Source of the DNA: Yuukianura sp. NJ FZ-2021
Lineage: Eukaryota
Direction of reading: 5' to 3'
DNA: 64,000 bases
NCBI GenBank assembly: GCA_046563655.1
Contig: CM102283.1
Span: 2,418,001 to 2,482,000 of the forward strand
Numbering within the stretch: the first letter of the stretch is position 1; the number at the start of each line of letters is the position of its first letter. Made by a program: the position numbers and the translations under genes. The notes below the pieces were generated by a model. It had not been told where the DNA came from. It worked only from the letters and a program-made list of their open reading frames with translations, and made no database searches. Positions 544-54,500 of the stretch are shown piece after piece.

Positions 544-3500
544 CTGAAAAAAATCAAAAATGACAAAAATGAAAAAACAAAAATCACAATTTTTGAAAAA
601 ACCAAAGTGAATTAACTTAAGCATCCTTCCGCTAAAAATCTCTGCCAAAAACTAAAAACTTGTCCTTTGGGACTAAAAACTAAAAACATGTCACATGACA
701 TTTGATAGGTACTGTACAACAAATTTTTAACATAAGTAGTTGGCTCTAACTATGTTTCCTTAACAGACAGCGCCAAGGTTTAAAAATGCAATATGTTTGG
801 ACACCGTAAGGTATTATTGACGTCACAAAAATAAACCCCGGGGATTGGGATACGCTTCACTCCGAAACCTCGGTTCTCAACTTTTTCCCATTCATTTTTC
901 AAGGACGATGGACAGGAAAAAGCACTTTGGAGTCCTTTCACCGGGAGTTACTACTCCAACTCTTTTAAGAACGTGCCTGAGAAAGCGCACTTTTTATTAA
1001 ACGTACGCTTACTGATCACCATCTCCAGTCACGAACTGACCAAAATAGTTTGGCCCTCACACAATTCCATTTCCTACGTTAACCTAACCTAAAAAAGTCT
1101 CACATCCTAGTTGGCTGGACAAACAAAACGGTTCTCATTCCGCCCCAACAGCCATCACGTTCAAGGAAAAACTATGAAAATTGAAAAGAAAACTCCTTGA
1201 AAACCAAAAACGTTCGTTTTTTAAAAATTCGTGCCGGAAAAGTCTGCTGTGGGTTCGAATCCTGGCTTCCTCGACTGTCTTATATAAAAATAAAGTGGAT
1301 CGACCACTTTCTCCAATTAATTTCAGTTTGCACTACCAAAAGACTGCGCCTGCGCTGGTCAGCCTGCAACCTGCAGGCTACCACACGGTGTCTAATGGGG
1401 GGCTTTACTGCAAAAGTGTATCAAAACATTTTATAGACAATAAGAATAGTATGCTTCATTTCCTTATTGCACTAATGAGTGCAAATGTTGAGTTTTGCAA
1501 CACTTTTTGTGTAAAAGCCCCGAGCGCTTGCCCCCATCTTTTTGTGTAAGAGGTAATGGGCGAGAACATTATGACCTTGGTGGACAAGTAACGTTAGCAG
1601 TACCAGTGTGAACTTAGGAATTGGACTTCATGGAACTTGGTGGTTTTGACTTTTGAGTCATCAGTTTATACAATGCAAGGAATCAAGTGTGTCGTGGTAG
1701 GTGATGGGTAAGTAATATTAGAAAAACACAAGTTAAAAAAATCAAGTTAACCGTGTGTAAGATTGTTTCCATTTTTCAATAGGAATGTTGGTAAAACATG
1801 TCTCGTCATTACGTACAAATGCAATTACTTTCCAACAGAATGTGTACCGACAGTTTTCGACAATTGCTCGACCAATGTCACGGTGAATGGAAAAGAAATT
1901 GATCTTGAACTTTGCGATGCGGCTGGTCAAGAAGAATTTGGCAGATTTCGACCTCTGTTCTATCCACAGACAGACGTTTTTCTCATTTGCTTTAGTTTAG
2001 TTTGTCCAGATAGCTTCGAAAACGTTCGAGCGAAGGTAAGCTTATTCTGAAGGCATGAAGTGATCAGTTCATAATTGATTAAGACTTGATTTTCTTGTAG
2101 TGGTATCCTGAACTTCGTCATCATTGCCCAAACACACCTACGATTTTGGTAGGAACCAAGCTAGATTTACGTGATGACGAACGTACGTTGTTGATATTAA
2201 AGAAGAAGAAATTAAATCCCATTTCCTATCAACAGGTACGATGGAGGAGATTCAAAGTTTGATAATTCTTACAACGAATTTTTGTAATTATTAAAATTCG
2301 GTTTCCAAAATTTTAATTTCATTTAGGGTTTATCGATGGCCAAGGAAATCGGAGCCGTTAAGTATTTAGAATGCTCAGCATTGACTCAGAAAGGCTTCAA
2401 GAAAGTTTTTGATGAAGCGATCAAGGCCGTTCTCTATCCGAAGATTCGAAAGAGCAAGAAATCGGGTTGCACAATTCATTGATATGAAATTCAAACAATG
2501 GATTTAAAATGACGCTTTTCCTAATATTTCGAATTACTTATTACGAATTACTCTAAATTCGTATCGAAATATCCGCAAAACCCTCTTAAAAATTGAAAAT
2601 AAAACTTCTTAAGAAAAGAAGAAAAAGAATCCCATTTTTTGAAAATTCGTGCTGGAAAAGTTTCCACTGGCTCGAATCCTAGCTTCCGCGTGTCTACTAT
2701 ATAAAAATAAAGTGGATCGACCACTTTCTCCAATTACTTTCAGTTTGCAGTACGAAAAGACTTCTTCCTGTTCCTGATTGGTTGAAACGAGGTCGGAAAA
2801 AGCATCTGTAGGAGTTCACATCCATTGTCTTCCTGTTCGACCACCAAAAACCTAACATTTCTTCATTCTTCTAACTTTTGCTTTTTTGGAAAGTTAAGTT
2901 CTTCCCGGAAGAATCAGAGCCCAGTGTTATCAAATTCCTGTCTGTCCAGGAAAGTTGACCTCTTCACAAAAGTTGACCTCACGAGGTGTCAAATGCTTTC
3001 CCCTGAGTCATCTTCTCCAAGTTAAGTTAGTTTAGGTCCCTTTGTTACCTTATCGTGTCTCTCCAGGCACTTCCCATTTATCATCTTACGCTGATTCACT
3101 ACTACAACCACCGAACAAGGAACAGGGAAAATTCAAACTTAATCTCTTTCTTGTTTTTTTCGCGGGAGTTCCCATGAGTTTTAGGAGTGAGTTACGCGGG
3201 TATTTTGCTAGCTAAGTCTTGGCTCAAGTTAGTGTAGGCTCAAGTTTACGTCAACCTAACCGACTATGACTAAAAATGGAAATCGGAAATCCACATCTAT
3301 TACCTGGAGCGCTGCTTTCACTTTCAAATTCTCACCACAAACTCTGAATGAATTTGAAAAAAAAATGCATACTTTCCAAAAGCCTTGATTGTAATAATAC
3401 ATGTAATTTTTATCGATAACCTAATAACTCGTCTCTTTTTTCAAAAATCGTGCAATGTTCTAAAAAAAATAAGTAGCTAAAAAAAATCATCAAATATGGC

Positions 3501-21500: not shown

Positions 21501-24500
21501 CTGCTAATGTTGCAAAAAGTTCAACAGCAAAAAGTTCAACAACATTTCAGACCATAGAAATCAACTTCACCGCTCACAATTCTGAAATAAAATTTCTGTA
21601 CCTTTTTTCTTTTACTTTTTCGTTTTTTGCCAATTTTGCTTGTCGACCAAGTTGCAGCCTGTCAACTAACCAGTAAAGCCTTTTCTCCATAATTCCAGAA
21701 ACATAAACCTCCACCCAGGCAGATACTAATTACTTTCTCGTGCGTCCATAATTAGTCAAGGAGTGGAGGTATGAAACAAAATGTAGTAAAATATATTAAA
21801 TTAGTATAATATAATAATACCAGACAATGGTAATAAAAAACCTAAACTTTTCCTCCTTTCATTCTCCATTTTCCTAGTGAAAAAGACAAGTTTCGAGTGA
21901 AAGCCTTCCTGCACTTTCCCAAATGAATCTCCCAAATCATTTCATGGAATTTCATTTTCACTTTTCCCCCCGCAGCTTAATTTTCAAAATTTCAAAATCA
22001 GGAATCTCGGAAGAAGACAGAGAACATTCCACAACACAAAAAAATTCTTCTATTGTGTAAACTTTCCAGTCTGAAATATCAAAATTCCGAGTCTCCCTGA
22101 ACTTTGACCTTCTGCTTGCTTTTTCTTTGCAAGTACAGTAGAGAAAGTTAAATAAAATCAACAAACTCTGTTTTGTTAACATTTCTGTAGAGAAACGAGT
22201 GCAAAATAGTTGTTCAAAATACAAAAGTTACAAAAGATACTTTTCCATTTCTCCTACAGAGGAACTGTAAGTACCGAGTTACAAAAGTTATTTCAATAAA
22301 AATTCAACAAAAGAAAAAGCCGTTCTTTCTCTGTCATCTTGCAAGGACATCTCTAGACTCAAAAAACGAAAAGTTCCACAAGACTAAAAACTTTTTTTTT
22401 AAATAAAAATAAGATGAAATGTAATAAAAAATCATGAAAAATGTTCAACCCATTTCCTTCTTCCGAAAACTTCACAAACAGAACTCTTTTTCTGTACAGC
22501 TTAACATAAAATAAAACTTAGTGTATTATAACGATACAGTGGCGTAAACAAAAACTCAAAAATGTGCAGTTTCATTCAAAAAAGTAATGCGAATTTCAAT
22601 TTTCAAAACAAAAAGCTTTCCAAATTTGACTTTTTAATTTTCATCGGATTTTCCTTCATTTTTCCCCCTTTTTTCCCATTTGATGTGATTCGTTTGACTT
22701 TAAAAAAATGAAATTGGTTTTCTTTCTCCAAAGTGAAACCAAATTGTGTCTACTTCTGAGAGAAAATTTTCTGTCTACAAATCTACAAAAAATATTTTTT
22801 TTTATGAAAAAAAAGTCCTCAGACATAATTTTTTCCATTAAAAAAATTGTTGTTGAAGAACTTGAAAACCTACATAAGAATTCAAAGTGTCGCGTGGTTT
22901 TAAAATAAATTGAAGTGCGCCAAAACTTAAAAAAAAACGAAGAAGCCAAACTGAGAAACTGAAAAAACCCATTCTGTTTTGTGACTCACATTCTCTTTTA
23001 ATTTAAAAAAAATATCAAAATTTCCGCGAATTCGAAATTTGGAGCACGTTCTGTTAATAAAATTCAATTAACCGCTCTTTTTTTCCACCCACTAACCATT
23101 CCCCTCCCTTAATTTTCCCTATTACCTAACCGAATTTAGAACTAAACTAACGTCTTTTTCCAGAAACCCGAAAACAGGAAATTAGAAACCAACGTCATTT
23201 TTTATAGAAACCAGAAAATTAGAAAATTCATACAAAAAATGAAAAAAATGCATTCAAAAAAGAAAGAATTCCTCCCACGTATAAGTACCCTTGACACGCG
23301 TCTGAAACCGTAGGAGGGGGCGTACGGCTTCACTTTTTGTTCTTGTCCAAACGAACAATGGAAAGAACGCTGCTCCTAGCGTTGCAAATTTTTTGTGCAA
23401 AATTCTTCCTCCTGACGTCACTTGTGCCAAAATCTCATAAACTCTACACAGGACAAATACTATCAATTTCGCCCACTTTCACCAGCATCCCAGTTTTTGC
23501 AACATCCTAAGATGCCCCACAGCGGCAATGAATGAACCCGCGACAGGAAAGACTATACGCCTCCATATTTCCGATATAAAAATACCGTAAATCTCCGAAA
23601 TTCAAAACTTCCCACCCAGAAATACCGTAAATTCTTTTTAGAAATATAAAAAAATTCGAAAGTTAGCTGCTAAACCTATAGTCAGCCTCTACGGAAATCT
23701 AAAACTAATCAGATTTCCGTTCTGTAATACGATCTCAAAGAAGAATTTCTAAACATAACTTCGTTTTTCCTGAAAATTTCTAAAAATAAAAACCTAATTG
23801 GAAAGTTACGGTATTGGATTATTTTGGAAATGCTAAAGTTAAACAATGGATAAATCAATCATGCCAAAAATAAAAAATAATTTGAAGAACAACCTCAAGC
23901 TCATCCATCTTCGCTTGTGATGTCGACGGAATCCAAGGCACCAAGAGGACATAGTACAAGGACTCAAATTTACTAATGGTTTATGCGCCTGCGCAGAATA
24001 CTTGACATGTGCACAGTTCCTGTTATTCACCTGTGCAGCATTCGTCAACGTCACAAAACTTTTTCAATTGATTCGCTACACAAATAAAAATTTACTTCCG
24101 CACTAATTAATTTCACGACGCAACTTTTTTCTTCTCTCAAAAACTTTTCCGGTTGTCAGAAATTTGAAATTCGCTTTTCACGTATGTTTTTTGTTCTTTT
24201 TAATAAAACAAGAACAAAAAAGTATAAAATTCTAAACACCAAAATTTTCACTGATGTAACTCAGTCTGCTCCTGTTTTAAAAATTTTCAGGATTACGAAC
24301 TTTTGTTTTAAACTTTTGAAAATTCAAACTTTTAAACTCGTTTGAACATTCGAAATTTTGAATTTTTAATTGAACCACCACTTCGAAAGTGCAAAAAGCA
24401 ACTAAACCACACGGCGACAACTGAAATGGCGACACTTCACTTATTCCCGGCTGAGTAAATACTAAAACCCTCTCAGTGACTCAGAAAAAAACGGCATTTG

Positions 24501-27500
24501 AAAAATATTATTTTTAACTTTTTTAGAAAAGGGTAAGCGTTTAGAACAAAAGTCGAGTGCCAAACATTTGCATCGCATCGTACAATGTCCAAAACCACCC
24601 ACTTCCCCATTCCTTCTTCAAAGTTTAGTTTCGAGCAATCCTATTTTTAGTGCCAAATTCCAAAAACTTACTCCCTTCTTAGAAGAAAAAGTTAACACTC
24701 CAGGCGGTTATTTTATTCCATTAAAAAGTACTAATGGGAATCTCTACCATCTTCAAAACCAATTCTGCTCATCAACACCTTCTTAGCTTTATAGCCCTTC
24801 CTGCTCAGGCGCACTAAATCAATCATCTTGTGTTCTAAATTTCTATTCACGAGCAAGTTTAACTTGACTTTCCCACAAATTAATAACCTCCTTAACCAAT
24901 CATGTCACGTTTTCAATCTCACAAAACTGTTTCAACACTTCTCAATACAACAAAGTAACAACTTTTCTTAAAGGTGCGGCGCACACGTCCAGTTTCTCTA
25001 CACTTTCAGAGATCTGTAACAAGTTTCTGAACTTCAGCACATGCGCGAATCATTCAGCAGCCGATTTCTGCTGGTCATGGGATTACATTAACATTGCAAT
25101 TGCAACTTAAGTTGCAATGCTTGTGCTGAAATTTCTGCACAAGCATTTGCATTCCTTTCCTGTACGATTTCTGCCCATGAAAGTATTTTAAAAAAATGAA
25201 TATTTTTTCGTTTTTCTCTTAAAGTAGTTGTCTTCGCATGTGAATTCTTGCAGTATTTTTCTGTACATGTGCGAGAACTACAACTTTCTGCTCATGTGCA
25301 CAAACATATTTTGGGTAAAGCGGAATTGAATACTTATAAATAACCCATTTGCTTACTCATCCAAGTCCAGTAAGAAGCTACATGACGAAATACGTTGAGG
25401 ATGAGGAGACGCCGCCATCTTTGCACTTCCCTCCATCACGTCAGCCAGAAGTGAAACGTCAAGACGCACGTAAAGGTCATGCCACTCTCCCATGTTTTTG
25501 ATTTTGAAGCTTTCCCAAACCTTCTGGGCATGCTCGTAAACTGTATCTTGAATTGGCGTTTCGGTCATGTCATTGAAAAAGGCTTCTTTTGGAGGTAAAC
25601 TTGTCATTTCAAAGTCTTCACAGGATTTCATAAGTGAGTATGGATAAGCGCCTTTCTGGAAGAGAAGATCGATGTTGGCGCCACTGTCGACTTCCTGTTG
25701 GAATTCTTGTCGGGTGACTGGAAAGGTGGCATTTGGGTCTTGACGCATTACCTTAACCAGACCGTCTAGGGATTTGAGTGTGAAGCCGAGACTGTCAGTA
25801 AATCGTAGTTTGTACTTTTCACGTCTTCTCGCATTCCCGACAATGTCTTCATCGTCTTCTTCTTCTTCTTCTGCTTCTCCGGAATACTCTGGAGTAACGG
25901 TCATACACAAGAATTTCTCACTGCTTTTTGGAATAACTTCAACATTTTTGATGATTTTGTCCTCTGTGAGCTTCCCCATTGATTGTACCAGGAAGTGGAC
26001 GTCGTAGGAGGATAAGTTGTGCAGGAATACTGGAAATTCCTTTTTGATTTGAGCTTCAAGATTGCAAAATTGATGTGCCATACCAATATAATTAAAAGGT
26101 GGAAGGTGTGTATGGTGACGCACTCTTGTTTCACCGAAACAAAAGGTTTTTTCACAAAAACAGCATTTTGTTTCGCGTTCTGAAGCTTCACGCTGTTCTC
26201 GGGTCATGTTTTGATCCAGCATTCTCGGAGCAATCTTCTCATATTCGTCAACTTCTTTTTGAAGAGTTTTGGAATATCTGAGAATACTCTCAACAAAGTG
26301 AGCAGCTACGTCTTCATCATCGTCTGTCATGTGGTAGCACTCTCCATAGCGACGGTTACCGTTAAAGTCAACGCAGACCCATGCATATCCACAAGGCTTG
26401 TGGATATTAACACGACGGGTGTTTTCCTTGACTTCTTTTTCTTTTGTGTCTGTCATTTTTGCTTTGTGCCGTTGGCGGCAGACTTCGTGTTCACATGTAG
26501 AGTCAAACTTGTTGAGAAACGCTTCAAAATCCGCGTAGAAGCGGAATGGAATTGGCTGAGTGCGTGCCCACTTGTTAAATTTTAATTCACGGTCATGTTT
26601 TTCTGGATACCGAACTTTTTGGAGTCCGAGCGCTGTACAATAGGGAATGTGTTCTTTTAGTGTCCTTGGAAGAGTAAAGTTTGAAAGACAATTGCGACAA
26701 ATGTGCAACGTATGATGAACATTCGGGGGCTTCATCAGCGCTTCAAGATTTCGGATTAGAAGAAAGTGAGCATTGTTGCCTCGCATCAGACACATCAAGT
26801 CCACGTGAATTTCTTTGGATTCTTTCGAGTTGTAGAGGATTGAAATATTCTCCTGCATACATTTGAACAAGTCGAGGTCTTCCTTTTGGGTGGCCTTTGA
26901 CCTCCGACCCGTAGTCTCGTTTTTTCGCGGTGGAGGACTTGGAGTATCCATGTCATAACCGAGAACTGTTAGTGAGATGTCGGGATTGAGTTGCTCGAAA
27001 CGTGGCAGCTGCTGTAGGGACATTGGCCAGTGTAAACCTTGAGTGTTTACCTTTGATGCGTGTGGGGCGTAAGTTTTGACCTTCTTGTCCACTTTGTAAC
27101 GATTTCTTCCAAGAGTTGCTCCGACTATTTTATCATGAGCGAGAACAGCCCAAAGGAAGCACTTGTTTTGAGAGTTTGAGGGTGTCATTTCCCTATTGTC
27201 AATGTTTAACAATGTTTTGTTGTGTTCGGAAAGCGGAAATGGTGTTTCAATAAAAGTTCCAATTTTGGTAAATTGGTATTTGGCGGTAACAAATTTAAAT
27301 TCGGAAATATAGGCCAAGTCCCACCCACTTCCCTCATTCGTGAAATTTTCAATTTGGTTTGACATCTGATGACCCATAATATTCCACACCGTTGGAATAC
27401 TTTCATCAGTGTAAACAAGATGGCGAAATGAGGTGAAACAGCCGCGGTTTGTCTCAACTGTGCCGTTGATATAAGACTTTGTGAAATTACATACCATCGA

Positions 27501-30500
27501 GAAGAATACTTTGACGTTTTTCCATTTCTTTCTGTCTTGCTTGATACATGCTGCAGATGAATCGTAGACACACTTTAGAAAATCGCGTTCATCTACACCA
27601 TTTTCACATTTAAAGTCTTCAAATACCGCCCTGTATTGCGTCACCGTGTTTAGCGATGTGAAAAGTGGTTCTACGGTTATTGGCTCCAAATTTGTTGGAA
27701 GTTGACCTCCATCTTGCGCCAGATCAGAGAAAAAATCCGGATGAACTTCGTAAAAATGTTTTTGCATTTCATCGCGACACGGAAATGTGAGATTGCATGG
27801 TGGACATTTCATTTCACGGTACATGGAGAGAACGCTTGGGCCATCTGTGGGCATCTGTGGTAGTTGTTTTGTTGCTTCGGTCACAATCTCGTCCTCTTCA
27901 TGCTGAATGTGAATGTGTATGAGCAGCTGATTAGCGCATGGGAACTTCTCGTTGCAGATTTCACATGTGTGGCACCCGCGCTTAGATGATGGACCCGGAG
28001 CGGGAGATGCGGATCTTTTCGCCATGTTCTGAAAGCTGTGAATTTATGTAAAATGCATTTGTGAATTTCCAAAATAATGTTATTTAGTTAATGTTAGTTA
28101 TTTAGCTATAAATAATCAAATAATTGGAATAAACAAGCTCCAAAATGTGAAATCGAGTTTTATTAAAAATTTCCTCTGAAAAAGCACTGAAAAAGCACTA
28201 AAAAATGGGATAATAGTTAATAGGTTAGCCTTAATAAATAAGCAAAAAATCGGAATAAACAAGTTCCAAAATGTGAAATCGAGTTTTATTAAAAATTTCC
28301 TTTAAAAAAAGTTCTTCTGAAAAAGCACTGAAAAATCACTGAAAAATCACTAAAAAATGAAATCATTGTTAATAATAGTTAAAAAGTGTCAATGAAATGT
28401 TAAGAAGCCGTTTTATAGGTCAGTTGTTCTTATAATTTATTTATGTTTCCAACATCCATTTTGAAAAGTCACTGAAAAATCGGTTTTTCTGTTGTAACTT
28501 TTTTCAGAGAAGCTTTAAATGAAAACTAAAACCAGTGCTCGATTCCCCATCAAATTCTGAGTCGGTGAGCAACCTTTATGAGTCTTTAAATTTTGAAAAG
28601 CATAAGCCACATGGAAAAAACGTCCAAAATAGTGTTAAAAATAAGCGCGACTTTAAGTGGCTGTAACTTTTAAGGCATTAAGTTTATGTGAAAACTAATT
28701 GCACCAGCGGATTCGCCAGGCAAATGTGTGTTGAAATCAGTACTTTAAGCACTGATTAGTGACAAAATGGAAAAAAACTGAAAATTTTTCCCCCCACCAC
28801 CCCCACCCACCCACCCTACGTCCAACAAATAAGGGAGTTATTGAAAATTTACCGAAATTGGTTGATTTATTGATCTCAATAAGGTTGGTTGTTGTTGAAA
28901 TTTGAATTTGTCTGATATGGCGTTGAGATGTTAACGTGTTGGCTGTTTAAAATAAACTGACCAGTGGAATATTAAAACTTATTATTAAATTTAAAATTTG
29001 CAATGCATGTTGTTGGTCTGTGTGTTAAAAAAGTTGTTTCAAAAGTGTCACGTTCAAACACGTTCGTACAGACTGTTATAGCCCGGGGTGTTGGAAAATT
29101 CTAGGTATCCTTTTCTATTTGAAAATTTCAAAATTCCAATCCCGAAATAGCAAAGTGGAGGGGGAGGCTTGTTCTGCATGTTCAAATTCACATTCAGTTC
29201 ACAGCCAAAAGCCATACAACAACCAAAACTTTTTTAAGTAAAGCAAAGTCCGCTTCAAACTTTTAAAACTTTTCAATTAACTGAAACTTTTCAATTAAAT
29301 TTAACTTAAAGTTAAAGTCCAAAACAATGTCATCTTCATCATCGTTAGTTCCACCGCCAGCGCCGCTTATTCGGCTGAATCCAGCATCTGTACCAGTGCA
29401 GAATCAGCACCTTCAAGAACTTTTGCGCAAAGCCAGTGAAAATCAAAAGTATGTCGACGCTATTGCTGCGGAGCAGCCTCTTCCACAGTACTTTTACGAC
29501 CACTGGGAAGAAATCTTGGAAGTGCTGCTCCTCGACATGAGAGGTAAACCTCTCGGAGTTCCTCGGGAGATTCGCGTCGATTACTCGGCAGTCGTCGATA
29601 GATTTAGAGCAATCAGGTAAGTTTGCTTTTCATTAAAAACTTTATTACACAAATTAAAAACAGTTAATTTAAATTTTAAAAACAGTTAATTTAAATTTCA
29701 AAAACAGTTTAAACACGACAATTTGTTAACTTTATTTCAAAATTTCAGAAACACAACCACTGATCGCGACGAGCTCATCAATATGGTCAACGGAATTGTT
29801 CGTACACAGCGAGGACTCCAGGAAGTACATTCGTACTTCATGCTCAAGAATATCCTTCCGGAACATCGCGCAGACTGGACGGATTCAGTCAACTACACAC
29901 CACTTCCGGACACTGCACAAATTAAAACGGAAATCCCCGCTGCAGATTTGTACTGGGCAAGGGAATTCCCACTCAAGTGCAAAGAGAAGTACTACGATCA
30001 CGGCGTCGTTAAGGTGGCGAAATCTCACGTAGACGAACTTCGGAAAAACCCAGCAAGCGGAACCTTCCCTACTGTTTTCATCGCGTTCATGACGGTTAGT
30101 TGCGTTATATTTTACACATTTACTATTCATTAAATTTACTAATTCAGGAAATTTACTAATCATAAATTTGTTCTGTTTTTGTGTAGAAACTCATGGAAGA
30201 TGTCAGAACTTCAGGGAAAAAATTCACTACATCCCGACGGAGCAAGCATGGCGTTGTGTGAAGTGGAACGTGTCGGAAGATATCCAGCCGGCTTTGGGCT
30301 GTCCCTACTACGACCTAAGAGCGACATCGTTTATGAGCCCGACAATGGACGTGTTGGGCATTATTGATGTGCCGTTTTTGGCCATGCCATCGGACACTGA
30401 GATCCTGCTGGTTAGCGTGAAAATTCCAGGACATATCCTACTAGTAGCTGTTGACATCAAAAATTGGTAAGTTTTAATTTATTATGTTACTTCATTGTGG

Positions 30501-33500
30501 GTTAGCATGTGCTTAATACTGTTGTTTTATTTTTTAGGTGTGGATACTTTTATGACTCATTTGCACCAGCAAGACTCTTCAATGTGAGAATTCAACTGGA
30601 CAGAGTTCTCCGCCACAAATTCAACATGCCTTATTCCATTCGATGGGACTATGCCAACTTTAATCGTAACATATTCTACTCATCATTGGGACCGGCCAAC
30701 AACTGCGGCAGAATTGCTTGTCATGCTGCCCGAATGGTTGTTGACCATGGAAATGCTGATGTCCACAACAACATCGACCTTGCTGGAATGCGGCGGACAT
30801 ATAATCTTATTATAAAGTATGCTAGGAACGCCCGCATTTGTAAGGGCGACAAGTAAACTGTCAGGAAAAAAAAAAAAACGTTAATCAGTCTTAAAATTAT
30901 TTTGTTTGATTTGATTTTTCTTTTATTCAACTTTTTTTAACTTAATAACTTATAAATATTGTTTTTTAAATAATACAATTTACTTTATATTTTTAATTTT
31001 TAACTTTTTTTACGATTTTATTAAACTTTTTAACTTTATAACTTCTTAACTTATTATAAAGAATACAATTTACTTTATATGTAAAACTTTTTTTAAATTT
31101 TGTACTTTTAACATTTATTACAACATTATAAATAATTTAATTATTTCAAGAATTTATTGTCGTTTTATTTAGTTACGTTTGCTCAAACGCTGAAGAGCTA
31201 AGCGACGGCGAAATATGTTTAGCTTAAAAAAAGCAGCAGATTGTTTCAATTCCTTCCGACGACGAATCCATCGTTGGAACTTTTCTTTGCGCAAACGTTG
31301 CAATTTTTCTTCACGCATTTTTAATTGGTATTTTCGATGAGCTTCTTCCAACTCTTTGTCAAATTCAATGGATGACTCCAGAAGTAGCCGCCGGAGTTCC
31401 TGATTTCTCTCCCCACGATGTCGTGCGTCTTCAATACTTCCAAGAGCTTGATACGTCTCGTATCTGCAGCCGTACGTTTCGTATCTGCAGCTGTAGCGAT
31501 GAGGTGTGATGTTAATTACAGTGTCGTCCCGAAAAATCCCGCGCTCAAAGTCAAATTTTTCGGTGAGGGCTAGTAACTCTTCGATGGAACAATTTTTGAA
31601 TAGCGAGATTTCGACTGACGTCCTGAGTGGCGCAATCGCTGTCACAAAGTTTTTCGCCGTAAGGACGCGTCCAATCGGAAAACTTTTTAGACCTGCCAGC
31701 ACAGCTCTAAACATTTGTTTCTTATTGAAATCAAGATGGACGATGTGCGTCTCACCAACACTTATCATAAATGGGGTGTACTCTGCAACTTTGGCGGCCA
31801 TCTTGTCAAGTATTGGCTTGAGTATGGCTAAGGAATCTGGAAATACTTTAGCCAGTTGCAAAGCGCTACGCCTGTCCAAATTTGAAAATATTTCTAATTG
31901 GCACAGGTATGGGAGCTGCTCGAAATCGAATTTATATGTCATTTCGACAATAAAAAATAACTTGGAAATTACTGTTTTTAAAAAGTTTTTTTCAGTTGTT
32001 GACGCGGCAAGAGAGAAGCTGAAAATGAACAACTTTTTAAATTTGTAATACACAAAAAGTATTTGTTTTTTGCTCCGGGCGTTGGAGAATTCAAGGAATT
32101 GACAAGTTCAAACAAGAACTTTCGTTTAAAAGTTCTTGGAATTTGTCGGGCTTCGGGTGTTGGAAAATTCTAGGAATTGTCAAGTTCAACCAAGGACTTT
32201 TGAGTTTTTTCCCTCCCCAATATTGCGGCCGACTAACCCCCGTGGCTGTTCTAAAAATAGGAGGGTGCTGAAGTCCCAACTTGCTATCTACTCACTCTCC
32301 ACGCACAGAGTGTCCATCATTCTCAAATTTCTGTTATTACGCAACTCCAAAAGTCCTTACAATTTCCCAAAATTCAAAATTTTCCAAAAATGGTTCCAAA
32401 ATTCAAAACTTCAAGGGCTCGAAAACTCCAAAATTTTGAAACTTCACACTACCATATCATGAAACTGAACCGTTTGAAAGTCCTGGATGAACTACATGGC
32501 TGCTAAAGATTCCAAATCCAGCAGTGACGTATCTGATCCCCTTAGGATTAGGAAAGATGCAGCCTTATTTCCAAAGAAAAAGATATCAAGGGCCCCCTGA
32601 TTCTCAAAATGTGTCCCTTGGCCCGTCTTTCTAAGCAGTTAGCTCCTCACCCGGGGATTTTTGAATTGAATTCAATTTAAAATTTATCAAAAGAATTCTT
32701 GGTGAGACCTTAGCCAACAATAGAACCAAAAGCTAAGGGACCCCAAGGAGCCCTTCCAGCTTCCTCTTCTTACTCGCATCACACACTGAACATTCTGTTC
32801 AAAACCTCACAAAAATTTCATAACCTCAACTCAAAAGAAATTCTGAACATTTTGAACAACTTGTAATTTGATATCTAGAAACTCCGGAATTTGAAATAAA
32901 AAAAACTCGAAAATTCGAAAACCACAAAAAAATTAAGGTTCCAAACAATCGTTTTCCAATTTCGAAAAGTTTCCGCCTCAAAACACGTAAATGGACTGCG
33001 ACTCCTTTATTTTCACTTTTTTCATGAAAAGTGGAGCAAAATTCGAAATTTAACACAAAAGAGTCACATTTCAGCTGAAATGTTCTTTTTCAATTATTTT
33101 CGTGTTGTCCCAGTTCTTTGTAGTTTTGAAGTTAAAAAAATTGTATGCGTTGCATATTAAATTTATGTCGTCTGTTTTCCATCAAAGTCACCACAAAACT
33201 GACTTTGTGACCTTTAAAAAGCTCATATGGCGCCCAAAAAAATTCAAACCCACCCGCCCTTTGAAGTTTTGAATTTCAAAACCGCTTTTTTTTCAAAATC
33301 AAATTACCGTGCAACTCAATCTGAAAGTCACACCGCGTTAAAACAAAAACCAAACAAAGCACAAGCACAGGAAGAAAAAACTTTTAAAAAAAAAAACAAA
33401 AAGGGGAGTATTGTTGCACTTCAATTTTGTTTGTTTAGGGGCTCACTTTTGAAAATAAAGTTTTCAAAAAAGAAAACAAAGTTAAAAAAAAAACAAAGTT

Positions 33501-51500: not shown

Positions 51501-54500
51501 AGAACCACAACCAACGTCATAAAAACTTCAAATTCAAAATTTAGTTGTTTTCGTGCTCTTCTGGGAAACCATGTGCCTGACAGCATGATCACAGCACAGC
51601 ACCTAACCTAATAAAATTTCAAAACTTCCCGCGTTAACCAAGCTGCGTCTCAACACGGAATACAAATTAGGCTAAATGGATTTTGGGTGGAGATACTTTG
51701 TCTAATTTTTAAAAAAGGTGCATTTTGTTTTCGTTTTCGTAAAAAGCATATTTTCAAACGTGTGTACAAAGATTTCAGTAATCAATCCTGTTTTTTTTTT
51801 TAAATTTCGTTCTGCAAGAACAACCCTCGTGCATAAATTTTAAAAATTGCATCTCACTTCAACATTGCAGTCAAAACGGAAACGGAGCTTAAGTAAACGT
51901 TCCATAACCAAAAAATGTTAAATTCTGAATTCAGTGGGAAATGAACCGCAGCGTGGGGGCGCATGCTCGGCACACTTCCCACCCAGAACCATAAATTAAG
52001 TGTCAAGAAACCAAAAACCATACTTTTGTTCTCCAATATTTCAAATGGATCGATCGAAAAGCTTGAAACAATTTCCCAAAGAAAGCCAGGGTAGGCACCG
52101 AAATTCCTAAAAAAAGGAAACTCCGCAAACAGAAATGTCGAAACACAAAATCAATTTTGTGTTTTTCAAAAGAACGAAATGAAAAGTCGGGAAGGCAGGC
52201 GGAGCGGGGAGCGCCATTTCTAATTCAAGACTATTGACAGTTAATAATAATTTGGATGATGTGGACTACACTGTATTTATGGTCCGTCGACCAATCAAAT
52301 CACTCCGCTCAAATTCCGCTCAGAGTCTCACCTTACCCCAGAAGCTTCCGGGCAGTAAACTTTGGAAAGCCGTCAGGACTGGGTCATGGTCGTGACTAGT
52401 CGAAAACGAAATAAATCAACTTCCCGCTCCGTTTCCTCCAATACAAAAGCCAACCAGGGGACAAATGGAGGAGAACAAAGTCAAAATAGCGCCAAATTCA
52501 AACACAAAAGTACAACAAGTGGCGGTTGGTGGCGCTTTGTGACTTGGAGCCACTTGAAAACTACATGGAACGATATGCCGAGTCACCTTCAATTCAATCC
52601 CCACATTCAAAATGGCTACCGCAAAGTCACTGACTGGAAAGGCTGTCTTTTTAGCCTACTTTTTCTACACAACGAAACCGCAAATATTTTGACTCACGGT
52701 GAGAAACTGGGGCAAACTGCAACAACAATCGTCAAATTTTCATTGAAATTTTCTTCAAAATTCTTAAGTTTTTACATAAAATCAGTGTTCCGTATAAAGC
52801 GCTTTTTTAAAGTCAATTCTTTGCTTTTTGCTGAAAATAGCTGTTTTGCTGTAAATGGAAAACTCCCTGCTTTAAAAGGAATGCTTAGTGGGCATTCCTT
52901 TAAAGTAGGTTACTAAATCCATGTAAACTAAAGAAACTACATAATACCAAAAAGTAAAATTTATCGCAAAAACTTAACTGATTTTTAACTTCTAATACAA
53001 CAAAAAGTAAAAAAAAAACCCACAAGCACTTGCTTCTTTTGCTTTTAAAAGGCAAAAAAAATTATTTGCCTTGAGGCACCGCGGAACAATGTAAAATTTA
53101 TTTTAAAAAAATTCTGAAAGAATTGCTAAGACTTTTTCTGGTTTTCTGAAAGATTTGAAAAAGTCTGTCCTGAACAAAAGTAATTCGATTTCCAATTTCA
53201 AAATTTTGCAACTTTTTTCCACAGGACCAATTGCCTACTACACTTTGAAAAATTGGCGAGAATTTTGGCCATGGTATTCCCTGTATGGCCAACCGTATTT
53301 ATTTGGACTCGGAATTTGCCACACAATTGCCACCGTCGTGCCATGGGTGCCGAGCTGCCTCTATCATCTGTTCATGTGTCACCGCCGCGGGCCACGAGTT
53401 TACAATGCTCTACTAAAATTCGATACCTTCGCAATCTGGATCACCGAATTTTTCGGTAAAACCGTTTGGAAATACTAAATTCAAAATTTTGAAAATGCTT
53501 TCAAAAATTTCCAGGGTCGCTGACTAACTTGGCCGCCACAATGTGGTACTTCCCGGAAGGACTTCAAGGGCTCCTAATGGGAATTTTCAACGTGACGTCA
53601 GTCTATGGACTTGCAAAGTCTGTCAAAGCGAAAAATCCGAAACAACGCGTAATGTGCTTTGCTCCGCTCCTAACTGCCCGAATTCTGTCAATTCTGCTAA
53701 GACTGACCCCATGGGGTGGTGGGGAGCCTGATGTGCTCTATCATGTGATTCTGCAGGTATATTCTCAATTTTTACTCAAAAGTGAAAATTTTCACCAGTG
53801 AAAAGTAAGAACTTTCATAGAAGAGTGCAACGTTTCACTCAAATCTGCCGAAATGCGAAAAAAAAAAATCTCATTTCATAAATGAAAAGCCGCCATTGAC
53901 AAAGAATTGGCTTGATTGAAAAGTGAAAAAATTTTCCCTGAAAACGAAAAGTGAAAACTTTTCTCTGAAAACAAAAAGTGAAAACTTTTCAGTGAAAACT
54001 CTTCCCTCAAAACAGGAAAGTCATAATTTTCGTCACCAGCAAATTTCAAAAATAGTTAAAATTCAGAAATATTTTCACAAAAACCAAAAAGTGAAAACTT
54101 TTGAGTGAAAATTTTTGTCTCAAAAATGAAAAGTCAATGGGAAGTTAAAAATTTTCCTAACCAGCAAATTCCAAAATACTCAAAAATCAAAATTCTTAAA
54201 TGTTTTTTTCCAGGACTTGACGTCAATCGCTGGCGGTTTTATCGGGATTGCTCGAGTGCCTGAAAAGTGGTTTCAAGGCCACTTCGACTACGTTCTCAAC
54301 TCACACAACATTATGCATGTGCTGGTCATTTTTGCAGTTTGGCACATGAATGCTGCTGCAAACGGTGACGTTAAGTGGATCATATTACATTCACAACTAG
54401 CTAAGAGCTCAACCAATTGCACCTACACTTTCCAAAAAATAATTCGAGCTGTGTAAATCTTAACATAAACGTATCGTTAACATAAACAAACACTTCAACG

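Follow-up and report, generated by a model that had tools for sequence, protein, structure and literature searches.

A truncated Polinton/Maverick copy in Yuukianura sp. belongs to a family with a selected two-gene accessory cassette predicted to address the host ubiquitin system

What kind of mobile element leaves behind, within 6.9 kb, an open reading frame (ORF) resembling the Polinton polymerase pPolB, a divergently transcribed protease-like gene and an F-box-like ORF, with no structural gene beside them? The question is raised by a 64,000-nucleotide stretch of Yuukianura sp. NJ FZ-2021 (assembly GCA_046563655.1, contig CM102283.1, positions 2,418,001 to 2,482,000), called the window below. 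The original prediction assigned the three genes to one element of a pPolB lineage devoid of structural genes, with three modules (OTU-like, Ulp1-like and F-box) acting on ubiquitin or ubiquitin-like (Ubl) proteins. Comparison with other copies in the same genome shows that the window copy is a truncated, non-autonomous Polinton/Maverick, an adintovirus-type endogenous virus, of a ~17-kb family. Polintons integrate by an RVE integrase and replicate by protein priming. This element class is already known, and it is the two-gene accessory cassette that is unusual.

From a search of the genome with window positions 24,500-33,000 as query (59 matches; 40 of 80 candidates scored), it is clear that a dispersed repeat spans 25,429-32,292 and that its last ~95 bp recur as inverted pairs about 17 kb apart. 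Four full-length copies (Table 1) measure 16.7-17.1 kb, show 89-95% nucleotide identity to the window and have an identical gene order, namely terminal inverted repeat (TIR), ORF302, ORF138, a putative minor capsid, small basic pX-like protein and major capsid in the left part, followed by a putative adenain-type protease, ORF218, integrase, ATPase, pPolB, spliced protease-like gene, F-box-like gene and TIR in the right part. Full-length copies with the same linkage and TIRs, which the original prediction had proposed to look for, thus do exist, and the three genes belong to one mobile element as it had supposed; the shared motif on which it had also relied is a 23-bp sequence present three times in the window copy. 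The TIRs of the four copies are 94-100 bp long with termini AGTAG...CTACT. All seven paired-end elements with flanks read (the four full-length copies and three derivatives) carry a target duplication of 5 bp, not the 6 bp that had been expected, one of the seven being ambiguous in that it resembles the terminus; an eighth element pair has no TIR match.

The Polinton hallmarks found across the full-length copies are pPolB, rve integrase, major capsid, ATPase, TIRs with target duplication, and size. The integrase of a full-length copy matches PF00665 (rve) above the cut-off (E 2.6e-10), and the window remnant has no integrase. For the ATPase, Pox_A32 is matched below the cut-off in the family itself (E 0.005) and above it in a 60% identical relative (9.5e-6), with Walker motifs visible in the sequence. 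The major capsid, a 433-aa ORF, was recognized by the Atlas comparison at 0.98 (228 of 256 features), a recognition value slightly below the tool's mark, and a double jelly-roll (DJR)-like domain is annotated on 14-30% of the cluster members. The minor capsid is a putative one, named by its position, and the pX-like protein is likewise named from position and motifs. A 174-aa ORF 3' of the capsid gene has H-W and Q..S..C-G motifs, which are presumably those of an adenain-type protease; it gave no Pfam match and no PDB sequence match. In a metagenome contig, the neighbour of pPolB is a relative of ORF138 (40% over 43 aa, pairwise E 2e-9); ORF138 presumably resembles a PC4-type single-stranded-DNA-binding module.

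The full-length copies also bear on the proposal of a distinct pPolB lineage lacking capsid and integrase and equipped with three ubiquitin/Ubl modules. Taken alone, the window does hold no structural gene, and reduced non-autonomous Polinton derivatives are present in this genome; yet in all four copies the sequence goes on beyond position 25,429, where the window copy breaks off, with the palm, ATPase, integrase and capsid genes; none of them ends there, the breakpoint being particular to the window copy. A capsid-less lineage is thereby refuted, the full-length members being canonical ~17-kb Polintons and the window copy simply a truncated one, and we give that proposal almost no chance of being right. 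What the remnant has lost is the left ~10 kb, with the pPolB palm, ATPase, integrase, capsid module and left TIR, and it is incapable of replicating alone. Of 92 candidates, 40 were scored, and none of these gave a match to the missing left part near C1:2.44 Mb.

The number of modules has to be reduced as well. According to PMC11161782 (available text), Polinton pPolBs generally contain a vOTU, which probably releases the terminal protein by cleavage, and both PolB classes are stated to carry an OTU domain (PMC8502044, available text); the OTU-like domain, originally counted as cargo, was therefore rejected as such. In the family studied here, Cys289 and His420 of the putative vOTU are kept in all six aligned pPolBs covering the region (seven were aligned, one of which starts later), and these candidate catalytic residues lie between the terminal-protein region and the exonuclease. 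Two candidate ubiquitin/Ubl modules thus remain of the three, the F-box with moderate and the Ulp1-like protein with weak support.

The pPolB frame of the window copy reads ~25 codons into flanking DNA, the element-derived part ending before the palm. It contains two C2H2-type Zn fingers, a terminal-protein region (assigned by position), the vOTU, exonuclease motifs and an HNH/endonuclease-VII-like insert at ~621-656; these domain names were assigned partly by comparison with the available parts of PMC11161782 and bioRxiv 2023.08.22.554363. Pfam recognized a Zn finger alone (E 0.005) in the window pPolB, and the exonuclease and polymerase motifs are complete in the full-length copies. Database relatives number 36 at E<=1e-20, several with PF03175 and many with PF02945 endonuclease VII. 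Each copy has two or three short GT-AG introns. The sites are one following I-R-G, one within motif A following N-N-L-Y, and one within motif C (Y-T-D-T/D); one of five copies lacks the intron of motif A. Two database relatives (47-48% identity) break off at the sites in motifs A and C, as would be expected if they were intron-bearing as well. Short direct repeats (76 bp twice, with 11-bp units) lie directly upstream of the pPolB start, at 28,108-28,374 in the window and in other copies too.

How widely the accessory genes travel with the element can be read from their distribution in the genome. With exon 3 as query, the spliced protease-like gene was found at 11 loci, nine with pPolB sequence in the ~10 kb fetched and two degraded relics, and all 18 F-box-like matches fall within element-derived loci. 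Neither gene is present at 13 further pPolB loci (about 50-80% identical by segment), seven of which have a TIR-like match shortly upstream of pPolB. The cassette is therefore optional: it lies between the pPolB start and the right TIR, several sub-lineages have retained it, and sister families lack it. Ten metagenome pPolB loci (21-37% identity), on mostly short contigs, carried neither accessory gene.

We have also estimated pairwise ratios of nonsynonymous to synonymous substitution (dN/dS, Nei-Gojobori type; dS 0.08-0.18 for the two accessory genes). The values were 0.01-0.28 for exons 2-4 of the protease-like gene (15 pairs from six close copies, leaving out exon 1 and the part before the frameshift of the window copy) and 0.15-0.33 for the F-box-like gene (six pairs, four copies), the corresponding ranges being 0.02-0.05 (capsid) and 0.05-0.12 (pPolB). 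The cassette is thus under purifying selection, and these low ratios indicate that selection acted while the copies diverged as replicating elements, as opposed to drift once they had inserted.

These data leave little room for the accessory genes being neutral, recently acquired host passengers, or host genes that happen to lie beside a Polinton fragment. One of the genes does have host-type introns and the host F-box family is large, but both genes sit inside the TIRs, selection has acted between copies, and within element lineages the genes have diverged to ~40% identity with their intron positions unchanged. Searches of this genome gave no host paralogue of the protease-like gene with more divergent exon queries (the counts being lower bounds) and no host orthologue or host source of either accessory gene, so the syntenic host orthologues that would have told against the original prediction did not appear. 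In addition, exon 3 has a match in a metagenome protein whose end falls close to the same exon border. We therefore regard host passengers as very improbable.

Several other members of the family have rearranged. A mosaic sister element at C4:6,655,000-6,673,600 has a capsid 97-98% identical to that of the window family, together with an N-terminal pPolB part at 79-80%, a protease-like gene at 56-57% and an F-box-like gene at 73-76%, and at its left end a second F-box-like gene (36% identical) replaces ORF302. Several non-autonomous derivatives have long inverted arms; among the derivatives are left-end duplications with the ATPase, one with a large retrotransposon-like insert, one that has kept an F-box-like gene on either end, and convergently oriented pPolB pairs. 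The inverted-arm forms may be snap-back products of protein-primed replication.

What, then, do the two selected genes encode? The intronless gene specifies a 257-aa protein with an N-terminal F-box-like motif, a middle domain of no recognized fold and a long basic C-terminal helix. PF00646 matches the N-terminus in five of seven aligned members (E 0.0015-0.024), the core residues L-P..E-I-F..L-D are invariant across 36% identical paralogues, and the ten best Atlas hits that have a family assignment are all F-box clusters, the highest score being 0.92. The structural model shows three helices at the N-terminus, with low confidence. The host genome has at least 101 F-box matches and at least four Skp1 matches. 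Other results weigh against the assignment: the window copy itself stays below the PF00646 cut-off (E 0.003; 17.8 bits versus 20.5), the two most divergent paralogues have no Pfam F-box match, the Atlas hit has 140 of 256 features in common, below the 170 typical of true family members, the structural model reaches a predicted local distance difference test (pLDDT) of 64 overall with the F-box part below 50, and no relatives were found among 1,699 candidates of 141-450 aa. A fold search with this model, which barely probed the middle domain, gave nothing at E<=0.001 in PDB or BFVD, and coiled coils only in a wide search; the predicted complex of the N-terminus with the C-terminal exon of host Skp1, computed without alignments, scored 0.17 against a mark of 0.34; neither outcome speaks for or against an F-box or Skp1 binding. 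The original F-box label accordingly survives as an N-terminal PF00646-like motif that does not reach the threshold, and judging from the motif and its conservation the protein is probably a true F-box protein.

The spliced gene is more difficult. It is predicted to encode about 410 aa in four exons separated by GT-AG introns of 132, 92 and 71 nt. In the window copy a frameshift, relative to five close copies, lies within an A-run early in exon 3 (~30,215-30,225) and may be an assembly error. The C-terminal half contains His (codon 30,432), Asp (30,554) and Cys (30,704) in the order of clan CE/Ulp1; the three residues are kept in copies only ~40% identical (one degraded relic is not covered at all three sites) and are in register with host SENP-type proteases, whose motif shapes are alike. 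In an hhalign comparison, a profile of four Ulp1-type sequences of this genome was matched with a score of 18.98 (E 0.056, probability 0.97%); with that profile, the adenain of the element itself reached 14.3. The sole relative of the protease-like profile among 1.84 billion representatives is the 104-aa metagenome piece mentioned above (E 7.4e-8), which keeps the His, and none was found in viral contigs or in metagenome contigs with exon-3 patterns.

On the other side, the exons gave no Pfam match, including PF02902 (C48), which is matched eight times elsewhere in this genome; the hhalign score barely exceeds the best of 40 column shuffles (18.63); a PDB sequence search found no useful match; and the oxyanion Gln site is Leu/Met, the His is followed by Ile/Leu and the W-L-N-D motif is absent. 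Host SENP-type sequences do carry the Gln, Trp and W-L-N-D motifs, the Gln being the oxyanion residue and the two Trp those of the di-Gly tunnel. The structure prediction failed (pLDDT 36.5). Thus, of the original 'Ulp1-like' label the order and register of His, Asp and Cys stand, whereas no Pfam threshold is reached and Trp and Gln are replaced. A clan-CE cysteine-protease fold appears somewhat better than an even bet on these motifs, and a true SUMO/ubiquitin deconjugase is a putative identity that we hold to be doubtful. For comparison, an intronless 525-aa ORF at C4:11,492,109 probably comes from another transposon; its Ulp1 domain (PF02902) is clear, and a Cys-rich finger lies at its C-terminus.

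The missing Trp/Gln residues, the marginal Ulp1 similarity and the F-box match below cut-off are what one would expect if the cassette were real cargo that does not act on ubiquitin or Ubl proteins. The spliced protein would then have another CE activity, such as that of a YopJ-like acetyltransferase or of a processing protease for element proteins, or a non-CE fold, and the 'F-box' would be a chance helical motif on an Oncoid-like regulator. Adintoviruses do carry 'Oncoid' regulators upstream of PolB (PMC8502044, available text). Against this, the order and register of His, Asp and Cys and the shapes of their motifs agree with the host SENPs, the F-box motif lies at the N-terminus with a core invariant across 36% identical paralogues, and its Atlas neighbours are F-box clusters. 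We consider such non-Ubl cargo possible but not the likelier explanation.

Taken together, the results are best accounted for by a truncated Polinton copy whose family carries a selected cargo of two genes, predicted to be host-derived and host-modulating and to address the SCF/Ubl system, and we consider this joint reading likely. Host modulation is the simplest reading of the cassette, whose position matches the variable-cargo region of Mavericks. Both the spliced gene and pPolB contain GT-AG introns, which implies that they are transcribed in the nucleus and spliced by the host machinery. The vOTU is predicted to cut the terminal protein off pPolB. The F-box-like protein would attach to host Skp1, either delivering a restriction factor to SCF to be degraded or acting as a decoy, and the spliced cysteine enzyme would act on a host protein. 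In its most specific form, the proposal is a dedicated two-gene module against the host ubiquitin system, in which an F-box adaptor redirecting SCF and a highly divergent spliced clan-CE deconjugase would move as a cassette between sibling families and counter SUMO/ubiquitin-dependent germline silencing or restriction; we regard this version as rather unlikely.

A strategy that combines a ligase with a deconjugase exists in large DNA viruses, and a two-gene anti-ubiquitin module, if true, would be its Polinton counterpart and a handle on how animals restrict Polintons. To our knowledge, almost nothing is known about the interaction of animal Polintons with their hosts, and the accessory genes are the best clue to it. 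One genome holds family versions with and without a selected cassette, which offers a natural comparison. Should both assignments, F-box and protease, prove correct, the targets of the two proteins would reveal host factors that restrict these elements, and the protease would represent a new, very divergent clan-CE family; should they fail, the truncated Polinton is an ordinary one whose two accessory genes are orphans.

Table 1. Positions of the remnant and its parts in the window, and of full-length copies elsewhere in the genome
Feature	Position	Strand	Remark
Polinton/Maverick remnant	25429..32292		right-hand 6,864 bp (~40%) of the element; from genome copy comparison
Left flank CACTT	25424..25428		one mismatch to CACTC; possible remains of the target duplication, could be chance
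pPolB, residues 1-865	25431..28025	-	frame runs on to a stop at 25,353
23-bp motif	29086..29108	+	further copies at 32,077 and 32,155
Four-exon accessory gene (protease-like)	29327..30856	+	about 410 aa; predicted from sequence and copy comparison
Exons of this gene	29,327-29,616; 29,749-30,094; 30,187-30,466; 30,538-30,856	+	predicted splicing
Intronless accessory gene (F-box-like)	31169..31942	-	257 aa; N-terminal F-box-like motif at residues 8-33
Right TIR	32198..32292		~95 bp, ends ...CTACT; from inverted pairs in the genome
Right flank CACTC	32293..32297		expected 5-bp target duplication
Full-length copy	C7:3,332,327-3,349,418		
Full-length copy	C3:7,456,823-7,473,760		
Full-length copy	C3:6,045,655-6,062,602		
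Full-length copy	C6:~1,099,480-1,116,208		

Within the window, all three originally reported genes are present, with the reservation that the pPolB has lost its palm and the protease-like gene is frameshifted, which leaves the F-box-like ORF as the sole uninterrupted one. The CACTT/CACTC flanks (Table 1) may reflect removal of the left arm with the host DNA left intact, or may simply be due to chance. The inner copy of the 23-bp motif is found in the window copy only, where the motif consequently stands on both sides of the cassette; three cassette-less sister loci have one motif copy between pPolB and the TIR. Motif copies flanking the cassette, and lying between pPolB and TIR where the cassette is absent, hint that it may have entered at a subterminal site.

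The surroundings of the remnant differ from it in GC skew (-0.19 and -0.20 in the flanks versus +0.03 in the element). Positions 3,000 to 49,000 of the window form a long, exon-poor and steadily skewed region (C>G and A>T on the + strand), with the element as the sole interruption. The skew would fit a long transcription unit, but exons on the two sides could not be assigned to one gene, and the host intron in which the original prediction placed the genes is a conjectural setting. A multi-exon gene at 52,359-54,453 (+) resembles what we take to be a PAQR/adiponectin-receptor-type membrane protein.

Compared with animal Polintons/Mavericks (adintoviruses/eupolintoviruses), as far as they are described in the available text of PMC8502044 and PMC8097293, the present family is similar in size (~17 kb versus a vertebrate mean of 16.9 kb) and has in common TIRs starting with AGT, a target duplication, an OTU-bearing pPolB, rve integrase, ATPase, a presumed adenain-type protease, the major capsid, a presumed minor capsid, a pX-like protein and an accessory region between core and TIR. 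The duplication is 6 bp there and 5 bp here, within the 5-8 bp range given for Polintons in the available part of bioRxiv 2023.08.22.554363. In the same partial sense, intact vertebrate Mavericks are intronless, in contrast to the two or three spliceosomal pPolB introns found here; vertebrate Mavericks do have variable accessory regions (PMC8097293), and the pair of a spliced protease-like and an F-box-like gene is not mentioned for animal Polintons in the available text of either paper. At the level of titles and abstracts, no Polinton was found to carry an F-box gene or an additional Ulp1-like gene, and the supplementary maps of PMC8502044 and PMC8097293 could show such genes.

The pPolB itself resembles pPolB2-type Polinton polymerases in having a Cys/His-rich insert inside the exonuclease region, a likeness of class by motif only; in the available part of bioRxiv 2023.08.22.554363 the HNH insert of pPolB2 is held to be specific to nematode and oomycete elements. 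Introns have a precedent of another kind in dinoflagellate polinton-like elements, for which introner-type introns are described (PMC12166617, available text). Ulp1/SENP (C48) or F-box modules have been taken up repeatedly by other transposons, as illustrated by the F-box isoform of Zisupton (PMC12062965, available text) and by Ginger with Ulp1 (PMC2836005, as listed). There they are mostly domains of transposase genes, whereas here they would be free-standing genes in a virus-like element and are too divergent for Pfam thresholds.

Further likenesses are found in the nematode Mavericks with wasp protease or krma kinase cargo (Widen et al., bioRxiv 10.1101/2022.07.12.499685, available text). 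They too have a variable cargo region of 2-5 kb beside the TIR, intron-containing host-like enzymes as cargo, a link to the ubiquitin system (through Ubl domains) and modular exchange between elements. The core genes of the nematode elements are intronless, in contrast to the intron-bearing pPolB described here, and they carry either a serine protease of HtrA type or a kinase that bears a ubiquitin-like domain, while the cargo of the Yuukianura family is a cysteine-protease-like and an F-box-like protein.

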